Part shown: one piece after another, positions 13,091 through 37,779 of the stretch | Layout: each line of letters starts with the position of its first letter | Numbering within the stretch: position 1 is the first letter of the stretch | Source: Candidatus Uhrbacteria bacterium | Lineage (GTDB): Bacteria; Patescibacteriota; Patescibacteriia; UBA9934; GWF2-40-263 | DNA: 64,000 nucleotides | Assembly (NCBI GenBank): GCA_014239775.1 | Contig: JAAZYG010000005.1 | Location: forward strand, 6,746-70,745 | Reading direction: 5' to 3' | Translations under genes and position numbers: made by a program | The notes under the pieces: generated by a model | Told to the model about the DNA's origin: nothing | The model's input: the letters and a program-made list of their open reading frames with translations, nothing else | The model's database searches: none

Positions 13091-13119
13091 TTGACAAAAC
13101 TGACAAAAACTGTTATTAT
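13091..13119 (+). promoter_or_regulatory. sigma70-like promoter candidate of the 13-15 kb island
   Basis: TTGACA (13091-13096), 17-nt spacer, TATTAT (13114-13119). Confidence 0.5.
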
Positions 13120-13599
13120 TGTCATGTTGATAATCGGCATGTAAATCATTTATTTGAAAATGCCATACAATTGAATACTGGGGAGAGACCAGTGCTATCT
13201 GTGATTGTACAGATGCTCAATCATATAAAATCGATTTTTGTATGTGTCTTTACCTTGATACATTCAACAATCGGTTTTTTATTAATTAAGATTACGGAGG
13301 AGAGAGTGTACCCGTCCCTTCAAATCCGAAAGGAAGAGATGGGCGGTGGATACCAAATGGAATAACTGGGTTTACTCACTTAATCCATACGCAAGGAATC
13401 CGTTATTCATACCAACTCTTGAGTAGGTCACTGAATTTTTTCCCTCCGTGTTCTGAGTTAATAAAACCAAAAAAACTCTATTTATCTACTGTAGATAAAT
13501 ACTTTAACAAGGCAAGCGAACCAATTGAGATGCTTTGAGCTCTTGGTGACCGCATTGATGTGCATATTGACACATCTAGTCTTTTTCTCAGAGCGCTCC

Positions 13600-13637
13600 C
13601 CCTGATGGATGGGTATTTATATACCCATCCATCAGGG
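13600..13637 (+). other. 17-bp perfect hairpin
   Basis: CCCTGATGGATGGGTAT, loop TTAT, ATACCCATCCATCAGGG. Preceded by the 8-nt palindrome GAGCGCTC (13591-13598). Confidence 0.8.
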
Positions 13638-13664
13638 CCATTATTAATTTAACACAACCCCTTG

Positions 13665-13707
13665 CCCGATCGTAATCTTATTTACAAATAAGACATCTAC
13701 GATCGGG
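13665..13707 (+). other. long composite hairpin
   Basis: Outer 10 bp CCCGATCGTA / TACGATCGGG enclosing inner TCTTATT / AATAAGA. Followed by TTTC. Confidence 0.75.
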
Positions 13708-13763
13708 TTTCTGTCATAATACGCAATTTATTTGTGTGTTATGAAGGAAATCACATAAAAATA

Positions 13764-13826
13764 ATCTGATCTGGAATGAAGTAAATTATCAACTACTTCC
13801 TTCCAGATCAGATCCCCATGGTGGGG
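13764..13826 (+). other. long hairpin plus adjacent short GC hairpin
   Basis: 13-bp perfect ATCTGATCTGGAA / TTCCAGATCAGAT with inner GAAGTA / TACTTC, then CCCCA-TGG-TGGGG (13814-13826). Confidence 0.75.
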
Positions 13827-13887
13827 CTTTGAAAAGGACAGCACTGTGCAAATAAGCACAACACCATCTCAGAAAAGGAGAATTTTA

Positions 13888-15123
13888 ATGCTGCAAAACA
13901 TTTTTGAACCCCCCACCCTCATGGGAATGCAATTTTGTATTCCTGAAAACGACTCGCGTCCGGGCCTGCCGGGCAAGATCGAGGTTCTAGGTCGCAAGGC
14001 CCAGAAGTACTTCACAGGAAAGATAAACTTCCAAGAAAGCCATTTCAACAAAGGTGTTGCCGTCAGTCTGTGCATTCAGGCTGGTCAGGACTGGACCAAG
14101 TTGGGAAGCATTTCTGCGCTGAAAAAGCGTGGTAATGAGCTCCGGCTGATCTCTGAAGCCAGCGTGATTGCTGCTTCTACTGGTCTTCCGGTTGAATGGC
14201 TCGTTAAAGGAACTGAGTCTGTCGAAGGACTGCGAATGATCAAAAAGGCGGTTGAACTCGCTCGAAAGGTCAATCGTAATCACATGTTCTGGAGCAGTGT
14301 AATGACTCCCAGTCAAGTGATTGACCAGGAAATGAACGTCCTTTTGGCTCTGGAAGATGCCCTTATCACCGCACTCAAGACTAACCCCAAGAGTGATGAT
14401 GAGAAGGAAGATCTCAAGCAGAGTACAACGACTGTTGATCTGCGTGACATGGATATGGAGGCTTTCATCGAAGGTCTAGTTCCTGTACCTTCAGAACTTC
14501 CGAAGTTGCCTAGTACCAGGTCTGAATCCGACACCAAAGTCAAGGCAAAAACCTGTACTGACAACAATTGTGTGATCGTGAAGCGGATTGAACTGCATGA
14601 ACCTGGAACCTTGGTGGTTATTAATAACGAACTTCGTTATGTTTGCTGCGGCAAGCATGGCAAATGCCGTTCTTTGATGACACCTGAGGTCGCAAGAGTG
14701 ACTGCAGATGAAAGTAGGCTTCGACGTCAGTACCGGATCCCTGCTTGGAAGCAGATTGTGACTGAAGACTTTCAGTCTGATCGCCACACGGTCTACTGTC
14801 CGAGTTGTTCAAAATTCATCCTCAAGGATGGGTCAAAGACACTCGCACAATGGATCACTTCTGCTGAAGAGACTGAGAGAGATCTTTCTCGAAATGGTAG
14901 GCAAATCGCACGTAGCTTGGGATACAACAATCCCTTGAACAACGACGCCTACCTTGAGCTGGCATTGGCAGAGCCAGGACTGCGTGCTAACGGAATCGTT
15001 GGCCCCAATAAGACCCGAAAAGGTCCAATGGGAATTCGCGCAGCCTTGGCAATCTCCAAGACCAACCCGAATCGTCGTAACGGCAAAAACCGTAGCAACA
15101 ATCGGAATGCTCAACGCTCCTAA
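13888..15123 (+). CDS. orphan 411-aa protein: unassigned N-domain, acidic linker, Cys-rich zinc-ribbon-like region, Arg/Asn/Lys-rich C-terminal tail
   Basis: RBS AAGGAG (13875-13880) sits 7 nt before ATG 13888 (the track starts at GTG 13846). Cysteine clusters CTDNNC ... CCGKHGKC ... CPSC. Tail KTRKGPMG...NPNRRNGKNRSNNRNAQRS. Counted rows are 47-55% G+C versus 32-37% in flanking genes. The many antisense ORFs are typical of GC-rich coding DNA. Confidence 0.7.
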   Translation: MLQNIFEPPTLMGMQFCIPENDSRPGLPGKIEVLGRKAQKYFTGKINFQESHFNKGVAVSLCIQAGQDWTKLGSISALKKRGNELRLISEASVIAASTGLPVEWLVKGTESVEGLRMIKKAVELARKVNRNHMFWSSVMTPSQVIDQEMNVLLALEDALITALKTNPKSDDEKEDLKQSTTTVDLRDMDMEAFIEGLVPVPSELPKLPSTRSESDTKVKAKTCTDNNCVIVKRIELHEPGTLVVINNELRYVCCGKHGKCRSLMTPEVARVTADESRLRRQYRIPAWKQIVTEDFQSDRHTVYCPSCSKFILKDGSKTLAQWITSAEETERDLSRNGRQIARSLGYNNPLNNDAYLELALAEPGLRANGIVGPNKTRKGPMGIRAALAISKTNPNRRNGKNRSNNRNAQRS

Positions 15124-15228
15124 AAAGAGCACTTGTTAATCAATAAAACGATTAACACTTGGGGAACGTAGAAACACTCTTTCTGCGTTCCCCACTCATT
15201 AAAGGTCATAAGACAACTTGTGCTCTTT
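15124..15228 (+). other. structured 3' element (three-way-junction-like) directly after the stop codon
   Basis: Closing helix AAAGAGCAC (15124-15132) / GTGCTCTTT (15220-15228) encloses hairpin GTTAATC / GATTAAC (15135-15157) and the 14-bp hairpin GGGGAACGTAGAAA / TTTCTGCGTTCCCC (15161-15193). Confidence 0.5.
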
Positions 15229-29285: not shown

Positions 29286-29471
29286 AGTATTTTGTATATT
29301 TATCGACCTTTAAATAAAAAACTGCCGATTACATACCGCAGTGTTCTAAGAAAACTTTTCAGAATCTCATTTACCTCGACAGGACTTATTTCATTAATGA
29401 AAACCTGTTGTCTACGGCGGATATGTTCATTACTAATAGCAATGTAGCATCTCCAATCTTTAGTTCAAAAA
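29286..29471 (-). promoter_or_regulatory. long 5' leader of the rplJ-rplL operon (possible L10-leader-type autoregulatory RNA)
   Basis: ~185 nt between the promoter candidate and the rplJ ATG. L10(L12)4-binding leaders are established in other bacteria, but the motif is not verified here. Confidence 0.3.
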
Positions 29472-29501
29472 GAGTATATATAAAACATATATGATTGTCA
29501 A
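29472..29501 (-). promoter_or_regulatory. sigma70-like promoter candidate for rplJL
   Basis: On the minus strand: TTGACA (29501-29496), 17 nt, TATACT (29477-29472). Confidence 0.45.
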
Positions 29502-29502
29502 T

Positions 29503-29528
29503 AAAAAAAGCGACTAGTTTAGTCGCTT
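29503..29528 (-). terminator. intrinsic terminator of the zinc-ribbon repeat gene
   Basis: AAGCGACTA / TAGTCGCTT stem spanning the stop codon. U-run on the minus RNA (A-run 29503-29509). Confidence 0.75.
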
Positions 29529-30028
29529 AGAGTCCAATTGTCTGGTCTACCGCATCTCCTCCACTGCCGGTAATGTTTAAGACAATAACCTTTTGAGTCG
29601 TGTATGTTTTTACATCCAGCAACCTTGCAACCAACATGCTTTATGCGTGGTGGTGGTGTCCAGTTGTCTGGTCTTCCGTGATCCCGCCAATTATCGAAAT
29701 GCTTCCTGCAACAACCTTTTGTTCTATGAGGATTTATACATCCATCTATCTTACAACCAACATGCTTTATGCATGGTGGTGGTGGCGTCCAGTTGTCTGG
29801 TCTTCCGTGATCCCGCCACTGCTGGTAATGCTTCCTGCAATAACCTTTTGATTGGTGAGGATTAATGCATCCAGCAACCTTGCAACCAACATGCTTTATG
29901 CGTGGTGGTGGTGGTGGCGTCCAGTTGTCTGGTCTACCACTTTTCAACCACTGCTGGTAATGCTTATTGCAATAACCTTTTGCACTACGCACTTGATCAC
30001 ACACACCAACCTTACAAAATCGAATCAT
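29519..30028 (-). CDS. protein of four tandem ~43-aa C-x4-C-x9-C-x2-H zinc-ribbon modules separated by W-T-P(3-5) linkers
   Basis: Repeats CKV(A/G)GC...KGYC(R/N/L)KHYQQW...GRPDNWTPPPP. The promoter at 30072-30100 implies ATG 30028 (MIRFCKVGVC) rather than the track start at 30100. One counted row is 50% G+C. Confidence 0.7.
   Translation of the reverse strand: MIRFCKVGVCDQVRSAKGYCNKHYQQWLKSGRPDNWTPPPPPRIKHVGCKVAGCINPHQSKGYCRKHYQQWRDHGRPDNWTPPPPCIKHVGCKIDGCINPHRTKGCCRKHFDNWRDHGRPDNWTPPPRIKHVGCKVAGCKNIHDSKGYCLKHYRQWRRCGRPDNWTLSD
29525..30010. repeat. four tandem coding repeats, periods 126/129/132 bp
   Basis: Marker TCCA(A/G)TTGTCTGG recurs at 29533, 29659, 29788 and 29920. The period differences come from (TGG)n runs encoding poly-Pro. 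Confidence 0.85.
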
Positions 30029-30071
30029 TAAATAAAACCTTGTTGCACAAAAGTAACATATACAACGAAAA

Positions 30072-30100
30072 ATATTAGAATAAAAAACCAACATTGTCAA
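30072..30100 (-). promoter_or_regulatory. sigma70-like promoter candidate for the zinc-ribbon repeat gene
   Basis: On the minus strand: TTGACA (30100-30095), 17 nt, TAATAT (30077-30072). Confidence 0.45.
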
Positions 30101-30124
30101 TCCAACAATGTTAGTCTTTGTATA

Positions 30125-34157: not shown

Positions 34158-35567
34158 TTACAAACTAGCATTCTCTCGCAACCACCTTTGAAGCTTATAA
34201 GTTGCTATAACATCATCCTCATTATATTCATAAATTTTTTGTAGAAGGTCTTTTTTGCTTTTATCCTCAAACCATTCCTCAAACCAGAGCACAGAATTTG
34301 CACCAGACGCATCATCTGATCTCCATTTAAAACCTATATAACTAGCTATATCTTTTAGTGAATAAAAAGATAATGGAAATATAACAGATGGACGAAGTAA
34401 TTCAAGTAAGTCAATCATGTTTCTATCAAGAGCTTCTCTGGCAATTTCAGAAATTCCATATTTTGCCGCAAATCTATTTATAACAACTTTCTCGAACCAT
34501 CCATAATGATAAATAGGAGAATCTATGTGACGCTCTATATACATTATAAATTCATTCCACATCTCAGCTTCTTGAGATGGGTCCTGAGCAAAGAATGCAT
34601 CATATTTCTCTTGACCATCCTCAACAGCCAAAATACCAAATAAATAATCAAAATCACGCAAAGGATCACTCTCAATATCAAAATATAAATCTACTTTTGC
34701 CTCTGGCATCTCAACATTTGCTCTTATCATGTGTCTACCATCTTTTATGGCAATTGCTTGGTCACGCATTGTCTCCAACCTATGCAAACTTAAATTTGGA
34801 GCTAAGCGCTCTAAGTCTGTAACAGATTTTAAAGACAGTTCTGTTATGGTCTTAACACCTGCATCATTTAGTACACTTACTTCATTGCGCCATACACGAT
34901 TTAATAACGATAAATCTTCACAAATCTCAGACTCTTCCCTACATTCCTTAAACCACGGAGACTGCTTACATCCTGAAGTAACAAAATGTGTAGGCTTGTC
35001 ACCAGTAACAATTTTCTCAATTTCTGACAAAGTTAAACCAAACTCTGCCTCAAACTCATCAATAACAAAGGGCATTACTTCTTTTGTAGAATTTACCACA
35101 TACCCCTGAACCGGCTTTACACCTTGCACTTTCTCTAGTAGCTCCGCATAAAAACAACCCTGAAACTTATAATCATCTTTTATGCTGCTTGAACGTTTTA
35201 TGTCAGCTGCAACATAATAATAATTACCAAGTTTTGATTTACCTTCTACTTTTTCAAGTAAATCAGGATTGCCAACCCAATGCTTATCAACCAACACCCC
35301 TCTAAAAATTGTTTGTCTCCCCTCAGCCATAAAAGCTAAAGTTTGAGAAAATGCTTCATCTGGATCTTCAGCTGTTACTTCACATAAATCCTGTCTGTCT
35401 GTAACAACCTCCATTTGCTTTTCACGCAATAAACCGTCTTCTATTAACTTCTCCATTAACGGCTCATGCAACTTATCTTCATCTTTGTGAACATCAAAAT
35501 AAACCCAATTTGGGCACTTAATATATTTATAAAATGTTTTCTCAGTAATTCTTGATAACATAAACAC
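34158..35567 (-). CDS. RecB-family nuclease, TM0106-like (PD-(D/E)xK N-domain + RNase-H-like C-domain)
   Basis: N-half has Cas4-like cysteines (CPNW ... C...C). C-half has YFDIESDP ... YNEDD, typical of this family. Confidence 0.65.
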   Translation of the reverse strand: MFMLSRITEKTFYKYIKCPNWVYFDVHKDEDKLHEPLMEKLIEDGLLREKQMEVVTDRQDLCEVTAEDPDEAFSQTLAFMAEGRQTIFRGVLVDKHWVGNPDLLEKVEGKSKLGNYYYVAADIKRSSSIKDDYKFQGCFYAELLEKVQGVKPVQGYVVNSTKEVMPFVIDEFEAEFGLTLSEIEKIVTGDKPTHFVTSGCKQSPWFKECREESEICEDLSLLNRVWRNEVSVLNDAGVKTITELSLKSVTDLERLAPNLSLHRLETMRDQAIAIKDGRHMIRANVEMPEAKVDLYFDIESDPLRDFDYLFGILAVEDGQEKYDAFFAQDPSQEAEMWNEFIMYIERHIDSPIYHYGWFEKVVINRFAAKYGISEIAREALDRNMIDLLELLRPSVIFPLSFYSLKDIASYIGFKWRSDDASGANSVLWFEEWFEDKSKKDLLQKIYEYNEDDVIATYKLQRWLRENASL

Positions 35568-35585
35568 ATTATAACATGTTGCTAC

Positions 35586-37137: not shown

Positions 37138-37779
37138 CTACTTATCTTCTACCAATACAGTGCTCATTATGTCACCAACCTGAATTTGATCAACAACATC
37201 CATACCTTCTAACACCTTACCAAAAATTGAATATGCCTTAGGTAACGGTGTGTCTCCTAACATTATAAAAAACTGTGAACCGTTTGTATTTGGACCACTA
37301 TTTGCCATTGCAACTATTCCACGATCATATCCATATTGATCATCTAGCTCATCTGCAAATGCATATCCTGGACCACCTGTTCCATTACCTGAAGGGTCAC
37401 CTCCTTGAATAACAAATCCCTCCTCTCTTCTGTGAAATGTTAAACTATTATAATAACCACCATTTGTTAAATATACGAAATTTGAAACAGTATTCGGTGC
37501 AGTTTCAGAAAACAACTCAAATACTATATCACCCTTGTTTGTTGTAATCTTTACTTTTTTATTAATAATTTCACTTTCATCTAACACTCCTTGAAATGTC
37601 CAATTTTCCATAACTTCTTCTTTTTCGGCATCGTTAAATTTATATGTTATCTCTTTTTCACCCTCCGAATCAGTAACAGCTGAATCCTTTGTTTCATCAA
37701 CTTCGTTATTCATTACAGAACATCCTGCACCTGTTAATACTAACCCTGTAACAAATAAACCTAAATAAAATCTTTTCAT
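37138..37779 (-). CDS. cyclophilin-type peptidyl-prolyl isomerase lipoprotein
   Basis: Lipobox LTGAGC. FHRREEGFVIQGGDP and ANSGPNTNGSQFFI. Confidence 0.9.
   Translation of the reverse strand: MKRFYLGLFVTGLVLTGAGCSVMNNEVDETKDSAVTDSEGEKEITYKFNDAEKEEVMENWTFQGVLDESEIINKKVKITTNKGDIVFELFSETAPNTVSNFVYLTNGGYYNSLTFHRREEGFVIQGGDPSGNGTGGPGYAFADELDDQYGYDRGIVAMANSGPNTNGSQFFIMLGDTPLPKAYSIFGKVLEGMDVVDQIQVGDIMSTVLVEDK

Follow-up and report, generated by a model that had tools for sequence, protein, structure and literature searches.

A stand-alone array of four predicted zinc modules, with no nuclease attached, in a chromosome of Candidatus Uhrbacteria

What might a protein do that consists of little more than four copies of one small cysteine-rich unit, joined by prolines of graded number? 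The question is raised by a minus-strand gene in a 64,000-nucleotide stretch of the chromosome of a Candidatus Uhrbacteria bacterium (Patescibacteriota; GenBank assembly GCA_014239775.1, contig JAAZYG010000005.1, positions 6,746 to 70,745), here called the window. The gene, referred to below as the zinc-array gene, lies upstream of rplJ and rplL. We conclude with high confidence that it encodes a nuclease-free member of a family of CCCH zinc-module arrays that are otherwise placed before nucleases of the homing type. Proteins of this kind are known in annotation, under labels such as “HNH endonuclease” and “Cys-rich domain protein,” but are uncharacterized, and the window contributes a new member with an unusual linker.

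The pattern C-x4-C-x9-C-x2-H occurs four times on the coding strand, with the first Cys of the successive units encoded at window positions 30016, 29884, 29755, and 29629, and all 16 ligand residues are intact (Table 1). In the direction of the gene the units follow one another at periods of 132, 129, and 126 nucleotides (nt). The sole length variable between them is the proline run after the motif GRPDNWT, which shortens from five to four to three residues, encoded as (CCA)5, (CCA)4, and (CCA)3. With their leading Thr, the linkers read TPPPPPRIKHVG, TPPPPCIKHVG, and TPPPRIKHVG. A preliminary description of the locus, made from the letters alone, had recognized four tandem zinc-ligand modules and had read the same series on the plus strand, as 126, 129, and 132 nt with a TGG run as the only length change; all of this holds. 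So does the 31-mer that it quoted as occurring twice, of which there are exactly two copies, at 29659 and 29788, with 0 expected. Its statement that the units are highly similar in nucleotide sequence is true of the blocks that flank the prolines, namely, the GRPDNWT tail (90% identity) and the xIKHVG lead-in (96%), but not of the unit cores, which are pairwise 65 to 83% identical. Exact repeats of 30 to 35 nt are common to units. Tandem Repeats Finder reports a period of 129 nt with 3.5 copies, 80% matches, and a score of 518, and it also lists a triplet run at 29902-29917. Besides the ligands there are three further cysteines (amino acids [aa] 85, 108, and 159), which lie in the PPPPC of linker 2, the KGCC of unit 3, and the RRCG of unit 4.

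To what family do these units belong? Two PHROG profiles, both labeled HNH endonuclease, match the array: phrog_5351 at 4.9e-30, over profile positions 9 to 79 of 171 only, and phrog_1271 at 1.1e-20, over positions 40 to 106 of 361 only. In each case the matched region is the non-nuclease part of the profile. Three further PHROGs match below 1e-6, and tblastn against phage genomes finds genes of Gordonia, Mycobacterium, Arthrobacter, and Microbacterium phages labeled HNH endonuclease or endonuclease VII. The preliminary description had pointed to a likeness to the N-terminal modules of actinobacterial and phage proteins carrying the HNH label, and these matches bear it out. An exhaustive phmmer search over 1.84 billion cluster representatives, clustered at 50% identity, returned 7,320 of them at E<=1e-3 and 1,218 at E<=1e-10. 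Among the 172 closest relatives, the number of units runs from 2 to 15, in keeping with the earlier suggestion that homologs with other repeat counts be sought; 119 of the 172 have more than 80 residues beyond the array, and 41, about a quarter, are array-only proteins. What do the longer ones carry? A Pfam census over the 143 closest representatives found Zf_WRKY19 in 55 (best E 4e-14), HNH in 28, HNH_3 in 22, DUF5763 in 16, Endonuclease_7 in 10, GIY-YIG in 6, HNH_4 in 3, and LAGLIDADG_3 in 1. About half of the closest relatives carry a nuclease domain of the HNH, HNH_3, EndoVII, GIY-YIG, or LAGLIDADG type, and one carries a Phage_integrase domain, that of a tyrosine recombinase. The ligand spacing seen in the window is kept in 835 of 911 family units, and the scaffold positions hold Gly in 87% and Tyr in 80% of units. 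The four window units follow the family pattern: the third Cys is preceded, at a distance of two residues, by Gly, and the His is followed by an aromatic residue.

The window protein itself matches no nuclease family in Pfam, NCBIfam, or PADLOC and does not qualify as an HNH or His-Me finger endonuclease, so that the preliminary description was right to see no nuclease domain. No NCBIfam model passes for the array product, and a PADLOC search for defense systems returned no match for the gene. The motif corresponds to no well-characterized family of known function: the array scores below the Pfam cutoffs given further on, and no relative of solved structure was found. In searches of solved structures with the array product and with a 66-unit profile, the best matches were Trp-cage miniproteins (E = 0.13) and an antibody complementarity-determining region, neither of them meaningful.

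Which known systems come closest? The N-terminal Cys-rich arrays of PHROG 5351, 1271, 3593, and 19978, found in phage and actinobacterial proteins of the HNH, HNH_3/AP2, and endonuclease VII types, have the same C-x4-C-x9-C-x2-H module, with the Gly before the third Cys, the aromatic residue after the His, and the helix followed by Gly-x-Pro. They also share the tandem layout, with a period of roughly 35 to 45 aa, and the predicted structures superpose at about 1 Å. The window protein differs in three respects. No nuclease follows its array; it is encoded in a chromosome of Patescibacteria, not in a phage; and its linker is GRPDNWT plus three to five prolines, whereas the usual linker is [HY]-G-D-P-x or HGRLTPE. 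Array-only proteins of the same family are encoded by gp9 and gp10 of Bacillus phage 0305phi8-36 (“Cys-rich domain protein; may contain zinc fingers”), which match by tblastn at 29% identity over 92% of the query. Unlike the window gene, they form a phage-encoded pair of paralogs, whose linkers are of another kind and lack polyproline. Among curated models, only DUF5763 (PF19067) and Zf_WRKY19 (PF24906) detect members of the family; both span the second Cys to the His, and neither has a known function. A literature search for DUF5763, PF19067, and Zf_WRKY19 found no paper describing the module. As a working analogy only, one may think of the DNA-binding modules of homing endonucleases (NUMOD1-4, AP2, and the I-TevI zinc finger) and of eukaryotic C2H2 arrays. 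NUMODs are helix-turn-helix-like and metal free, and neither the homing-endonuclease modules nor the C2H2 arrays match the window module in sequence or ligand pattern. The analogy lies in small tandem modules, conserved linkers, variable surface positions, and interchangeable nuclease domains, a modular architecture that has been described for HNH_3 group 2 (PMC5714182).

How might a single unit fold, and would it hold zinc? Given one unit and a 66-unit alignment, AlphaFold2 models a short hairpin, a 10-residue helix that starts at the Cys-x2-His, and a short turn at D-N-W, with a mean predicted local distance difference test score (pLDDT) of 73 and a core at 84 to 89. The predicted fold is a knuckle, a β-hairpin, and a helix, which is treble-clef-like. 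Among the viral structures of the BFVD library, the model is best matched by copies of this module in phage HNH and EndoVII proteins, at a root-mean-square deviation of 0.4 to 1.5 Å over some 30 residues. Foldseek against the Protein Data Bank gave weak, nonsignificant matches to the zinc modules of two proteins, ribosomal protein S14 and topoisomerase III. The name zinc ribbon, used in the preliminary description, has to be given up. A classical zinc ribbon has two CxxC-type knuckles on β-hairpins, a three-stranded sheet, and no ligands on a helix; here the pattern is C-x4-C...C-x2-H, and the last two ligands lie at the start of the predicted helix. A C2H2 zinc finger was likewise considered and set aside. 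Such fingers read C-x2-4-C-x12-H-x3-5-H, with both His on the helix, in place of the C-x4-C-x9-C-x2-H of the array, and matches to fingers of GLI and ZNF410 are below threshold and limited to the CxxxGC knuckle. Most likely each module binds one Zn2+, to judge from its invariant ligands and its predicted fold.

The linker deserves a separate word. In each unit the C-terminal half, HYQQWLKSGRPDNWTPPP, can be aligned with TC5b, a designed Trp-cage miniprotein, and with derivatives of exendin-4 (YIQWLKDGGPSSGRPPP) at E = 0.13 to 0.6; the alignment is seen at window 29903-29960 (helix and linker of unit 1) and at the equivalent places in units 2 and 3. The spacing of the Tyr, Trp, Gly, Pro, and PPP is the same, as it is in the family consensus Y-x2-W-x3-G-x-P, and the AlphaFold2 model has the order of helix, short turn at DNW, and then prolines. 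The linker may thus fold back on the helix Trp and not be a free spacer.

Would such an array read DNA? Here the pattern of variation is informative. In 822 canonically spaced family units the ligands are invariant and Gly-13, Tyr-19, and Gly-26 are conserved at 74 to 87%, while positions 22 and 28 most often hold Trp (42%) and Pro (50%), respectively; entropy is high at positions 6-10, 16-17, 20, and 23-25. Among the four window units, differences fall at positions 3, 6, 8, 10, 16, 20, and 23-25, with agreement elsewhere. The positions that vary among them are mostly the high-entropy positions of the family, and the ligands and the Gly/Tyr/Trp scaffold are fixed. The product is very basic, with 33 Lys plus Arg against 11 Asp, no Glu, and an isoelectric point of 9.7. 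A fixed scaffold, variable surface positions, and a very basic tandem array are what a modular reader of nucleic acid would be expected to look like.

From these features, and from the company that the module keeps in other proteins, a mechanism can be proposed. The array would be a stand-alone, nuclease-free set of four small zinc modules, each holding its Zn2+ through the Cys-x4-Cys knuckle and the Cys-x2-His in the first turn of the helix. The same module sits in arrays of 2 to 15 before nucleases of at least four folds and before a tyrosine recombinase, which makes it the obvious candidate for the domain that recognizes target DNA. Each module might read a short subsite through the variable positions of the loop after the knuckle and of the exposed helix face, and the invariant GRPDNWT-Pn-xIKHVG segments might serve as stiff polyproline spacers that set the distance from module to module. 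Because one proline adds about 3 Å, the three module spacings would all differ. With no nuclease attached, the protein would be a DNA-binding factor that serves as a regulator or occupies a site. It would be transcribed from its own promoter in a variable slot between operons of the Patescibacteria chromosome, and its array would have been expanded or homogenized within its own lineage. Domain associations and charge together suggest that the array binds DNA sequence specifically, module by module, with the Trp/polyproline linkers as stiff spacers; we consider that proposal evenly balanced between right and wrong.

Several observations pull the other way. Structure and literature searches found no experiment and no solved structure for any member of the family, and the case for DNA binding is one of association and charge. 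The linker and polyproline part of the AlphaFold2 model has a pLDDT of only 52 to 65. The array reaches the cutoff of neither curated model: DUF5763 gives it 14.5 to 14.6 bits (E = 0.02), below its cutoff of 26.3 bits, and Zf_WRKY19, whose gathering cutoff is 27 bits, gives no match at E<=10. No candidate operator was identified, the sequence ATTGACAAT of the two flanking promoters not being enriched. Finally, a single module closes membrane-anchored coiled-coil proteins in six loci (L006 to L011), which would fit a more general interaction module. Those proteins, encoded in high-GC genome bins (for example, L007 5263-6105), start from a lipoprotein-like signal at the N terminus, contain a coiled coil, a transmembrane helix, and a long Lys/Pro/Glu region of low complexity, and end in one zinc module, CKVKGCNNKHRSKGFCNKHYQQWRRG, a layout that misfits a nuclease-targeting role.

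Where does the gene sit? On the minus strand the order is an RNase_H_2-like gene, a C39-like peptidase gene, a DUF2938-like gene, xseA, xseB, a holin-family gene, the UMP kinase gene, the zinc-array gene, rplJ, and rplL. Names borne by close homologs of this UMP kinase place the host among Candidatus Uhrbacteria / Patescibacteria. The open frame listed for the zinc-array gene spans 29519..30100 (193 aa from a TTG), the coordinates that the preliminary description gave. The TTG at 30100 makes up the first 3 nt of the -35 hexamer TTGACA of a promoter-like site, and because it lies inside that hexamer it is an unlikely start codon. Most likely the coding sequence is 29519..30028, that is, 169 aa plus stop, starting at the ATG at 30028, the first in-frame ATG 3' of the promoter-like site, with an AAGG 9 nt upstream. 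Look-ups of the 169-aa product and of a 191-aa product found no exact-sequence record. The gene is thus predicted to be transcribed from its own promoter, with its own terminator. Between that terminator and rplJ lie a near-consensus promoter (29473-29501, minus strand) and a ribosomal protein L10 leader (RF00557, 29306-29435, minus strand, 48.3 bits). Since this promoter and leader follow the array terminator, rplJ-rplL would be regulated independently of the zinc-array gene.

Uhrbacteria-like relatives with a UMP kinase 80 to 86% identical to that of the window keep the flanking gene order, and none of them has a zinc array in the interval from the UMP kinase gene to rplJ. That slot holds instead a membrane protein, a Cys-rich 186-aa protein, a PP2C, or an acidic repeat protein, all mutually unrelated (window 29286-30124; L013 4724-6282; L015 4712-6851; L014 1361-2782). 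The array gene also stands apart in composition, with a GC content at third codon positions (GC3) of 0.376 against 0.228 ± 0.049 for 56 window genes (z = 3.0). Because of this anomaly, its absence from the slot in relatives, and its own promoter and terminator, the array gene is a lineage-specific occupant of a variable slot between operons. The sequence ATTGACAAT, which flanks both ends of the gene, was considered as a target-site duplication or operator and rejected: it occurs 5 times in the window, compared with 2.4 expected, 9 of 100 shuffles reach 5 occurrences, and it is part of ordinary -35 regions.

How widespread is the linker? Only 15 of 917 units among the 172 closest proteins have a linker of the G-x-P-x-x-W type. 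In 2.9 million viral contigs the pattern W-x3-G-x-P-D-[ND]-W-x-P has 12 matches, none of them in a zinc-module protein, and in a metagenome collection the pattern H-[YF]-x2-W-x3-G-x-P-D-[ND]-W-x-P matches one locus, L019. Each subfamily member found stands as a single gene in a chromosomal, housekeeping neighborhood and none in a phage-like region, and the homologs, at 46 to 59% identity, lie in genomes whose neighbor genes are 48 to 70% identical to those of the window. One of the nearest, P0034, has four units (53% identity by phmmer, 46% by tblastn) and is encoded divergently from an operon of DUF2938-like, xseA, xseB, holin, and UMP kinase genes, in a genome of 50% GC with neighbor genes 54 to 60% identical to those of the window; in three of its four units the linker motif contains a Cys (AGCPDNW). 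At L019, a two-unit open reading frame (ORF) lies between a cyclophilin gene and an RNase_H_2-like gene, which are 70% and 60% identical to the window genes 37141-37659 and 34167-35573, respectively. Among the more distant members, P0035 (L020 6001-6765) is array only and divergent from mraZ-rsmH, and P0299 (L035 10001-10603), also array only, lies directly upstream of groES-groEL. The L035 and L020 members thus adjoin strongly expressed housekeeping operons. The three closest array genes (L017 2682-3302, L019 811-1065, and window 29519-30028) share one conserved block that runs from the cyclophilin gene to rplL, where they take three different intergenic positions and orientations. This could have come about by local relocation or repeated insertion, or it could reflect a functional tie to the block.

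These surroundings invite another explanation, that the protein is an adaptor which binds protein or RNA and not DNA, its zinc modules and Trp/polyproline segments making contacts with, for example, the translation or chaperone machinery encoded beside subfamily members. The proximity to rplJ-rplL (window), groES-groEL (L035), and mraZ (L020) is consistent with it, as are the single modules at the C terminus of membrane proteins, a linker rich in polyproline and Trp, and the nonsignificant Foldseek matches mentioned above (S14 and topoisomerase III). DNA is indicated, however, by the repeated fusion of the module to nucleases of at least four folds and to a recombinase. Furthermore, close host relatives have no array gene beside rplJ, so that its link with the ribosomal operon is not conserved, and a functional connection of that sort was rejected. 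We judge the adaptor unlikely.

Is the gene doing anything at all? It might be the decaying remnant of a free-standing homing endonuclease gene that has lost its nuclease, with the array turning into a pseudogene of no present function. The typical fusion of the family to homing-type nucleases, the foreign composition of the gene, and its absence from the slot in relatives would all fit, and decay of units is seen elsewhere: unit 3 of P0034 no longer has its second Cys or its linker motif, and unit 1 of L019 has lost the knuckle. In the window, however, the 16 ligands and the scaffold residues are intact across the four units, and the promoter and terminator have been kept. There is neither room for nor trace of a nuclease remnant 3' of the array, where only three residues (LSD) follow unit 4 before the stop and the terminator, the rplJ promoter, and the L10 leader come at once. 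Array-only proteins are, as mentioned, common among the closest relatives, and the GRPDNW subfamily stays array only across genomes whose neighbor genes have diverged to 48 to 70% identity. That the gene is a dying remnant is accordingly improbable, and we retain the stand-alone DNA-binding factor as our preferred reading.

How did the array arise? Units 2 to 4 of the window are 61 to 79% identical among themselves, units 1, 2, and 4 of P0034 are 73 to 85% identical, and those of the protein P0001 are 70 to 85% identical, whereas any pair of units from two different proteins is 70% identical or less; the within-protein range of 61 to 85% leaves out the divergent unit 1 of the window and the decayed unit 3 of P0034. 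Between proteins, individual units show no orthology to one another. Where two units share an amino acid, the codon is also shared at 71 to 77% of positions. Because units within a protein are closer than units in different proteins, comparison of the sequences indicates that the arrays have been expanded or homogenized separately in each lineage, which agrees with the recent amplification or concerted evolution proposed in the preliminary description.

Any tandem repeat raises the suspicion that its copy number was made by the assembler. The neighboring genes are also found, at 98.8 to 100% identity, on five short-read contigs of the same population, all of which end inside the zinc-array gene, at it, or within about 210 nt of it. 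Two of them reach into the array and match the window at 99.7 to 99.9% identity: in contig L004 the promoter, units 1 and 2, and the P5 linker between them are exactly as in the window, and contig L002 agrees with it for part of unit 3, for unit 4 and the P3 linker that joins the two, and for the region downstream. Since all four cores differ, at least four units exist. An expanded, collapsed, or misordered repeat is hinted at by the breaking of the short-read assemblies at this gene and by the junction between units 2 and 3 (the P4-Cys linker), which is present in the window only and has no independent support. Nevertheless, the four cores are all different (65 to 83% nucleotide identity), units 1-2 and 3-4 with their linkers recur in independent contigs, the frame is intact throughout, and homologs with 2 to 15 units are common. 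An artifact is therefore highly improbable.

Contig L004 holds one oddity. At its positions 2060-2114, compared with window 29762-29820, the core of unit 2 crosses a shared 32-mer into a linker of the unit 3 type (ACA CCA CCA CCA CGC); 24 nt further on, the contig stops. Either a three-unit deletion allele or a path error of the assembler would explain the join. If it is real, could variability be the very point of the locus? As a contingency locus, the gene would yield variants in linker length or unit number through slippage of (CCA)n or unequal recombination, and it does have three in-frame triplet runs of 3 to 5 repeats, exact repeats of 30 to 35 nt common to units, and the cluster of contig ends in or within about 210 nt of it. 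Three to five triplets are short for appreciable slippage, however, and changes of length that stay in frame cannot switch a gene on or off. Linkers 1 and 3 are unchanged wherever an independent contig covers them, and a path error in a de Bruijn graph would look just like the L004 junction, which comes right after the shared 32-mer and so close to the contig end. We regard a contingency locus as very unlikely. The slippage-prone microsatellite of the preliminary description finds no backing either, there being no sign of CCA-tract slippage.

Table 1. Window coordinates of the zinc-array gene's predicted signals, units, and linkers
Feature	Window position	Strand	Details
Promoter-like site of zinc-array gene	30072..30100	-	TTGACA, 17 nt, TAATAT; 10/12 matches
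Unit 1, aa 5-37, CKVGVCDQVRSAKGYCNKHYQQWLKSGRPDNWT	29918..30016	-	motif and unit alignment
Linker 1, PPPPPRIKHVG, (CCA)5 at 29903-29917	29885..29917	-	identical in contig L004
Unit 2, aa 49-81, CKVAGCINPHQSKGYCRKHYQQWRDHGRPDNWT	29786..29884	-	unit modeled by AlphaFold2
Linker 2, PPPPCIKHVG, (CCA)4 at 29774-29785	29756..29785	-	junction in no independent contig
Unit 3, aa 92-124, CKIDGCINPHRTKGCCRKHFDNWRDHGRPDNWT	29657..29755	-	motif and unit alignment
Linker 3, PPPRIKHVG, (CCA)3 at 29648-29656	29630..29656	-	identical in contig L002
Unit 4, aa 134-166, CKVAGCKNIHDSKGYCLKHYRQWRRCGRPDNWT, then LSD and stop	29531..29629	-	motif and unit alignment
Intrinsic-terminator-like hairpin	29508..29528	-	9-bp stem, then T run; overlaps stop codon

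Why should one small gene matter? Alone it is of modest interest; from it one learns that arrays of this kind exist as genes in their own right between Patescibacteria housekeeping operons. The family as a whole, whose module is abundant (7,320 representatives) and found on at least four nuclease folds and a recombinase yet uncharacterized, would be much more interesting if modular reading of DNA were demonstrated. It is a tentative thought, and one that we hold to be rather doubtful, that the module family is an unrecognized prokaryotic and phage counterpart of the eukaryotic zinc-finger arrays. Under that proposal, a modular reader, one module to one subsite, would be common to mobile nucleases of several folds; small-genome Patescibacteria would have domesticated nuclease-free chromosomal DNA-binding factors from it; in the GRPDNW subfamily, graded, rigid, Trp-capped polyproline linkers would tune the spacing; and duplication of units within a lineage would bring diversity. 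If arrays do read DNA module by module, this would explain how a large share of the phage “HNH endonucleases” are targeted, and the module would offer a compact new scaffold for engineered DNA recognition.

Elsewhere in the window there is a second compositional island, at 13100-15200, where the GC content is 0.38 to 0.50 against a window mean of 0.34. It holds a 425-aa ORF (13846-15123, plus strand) that has no Pfam match, contains several Cys pairs, and has a GC3 of 0.50, the maximum in the window.

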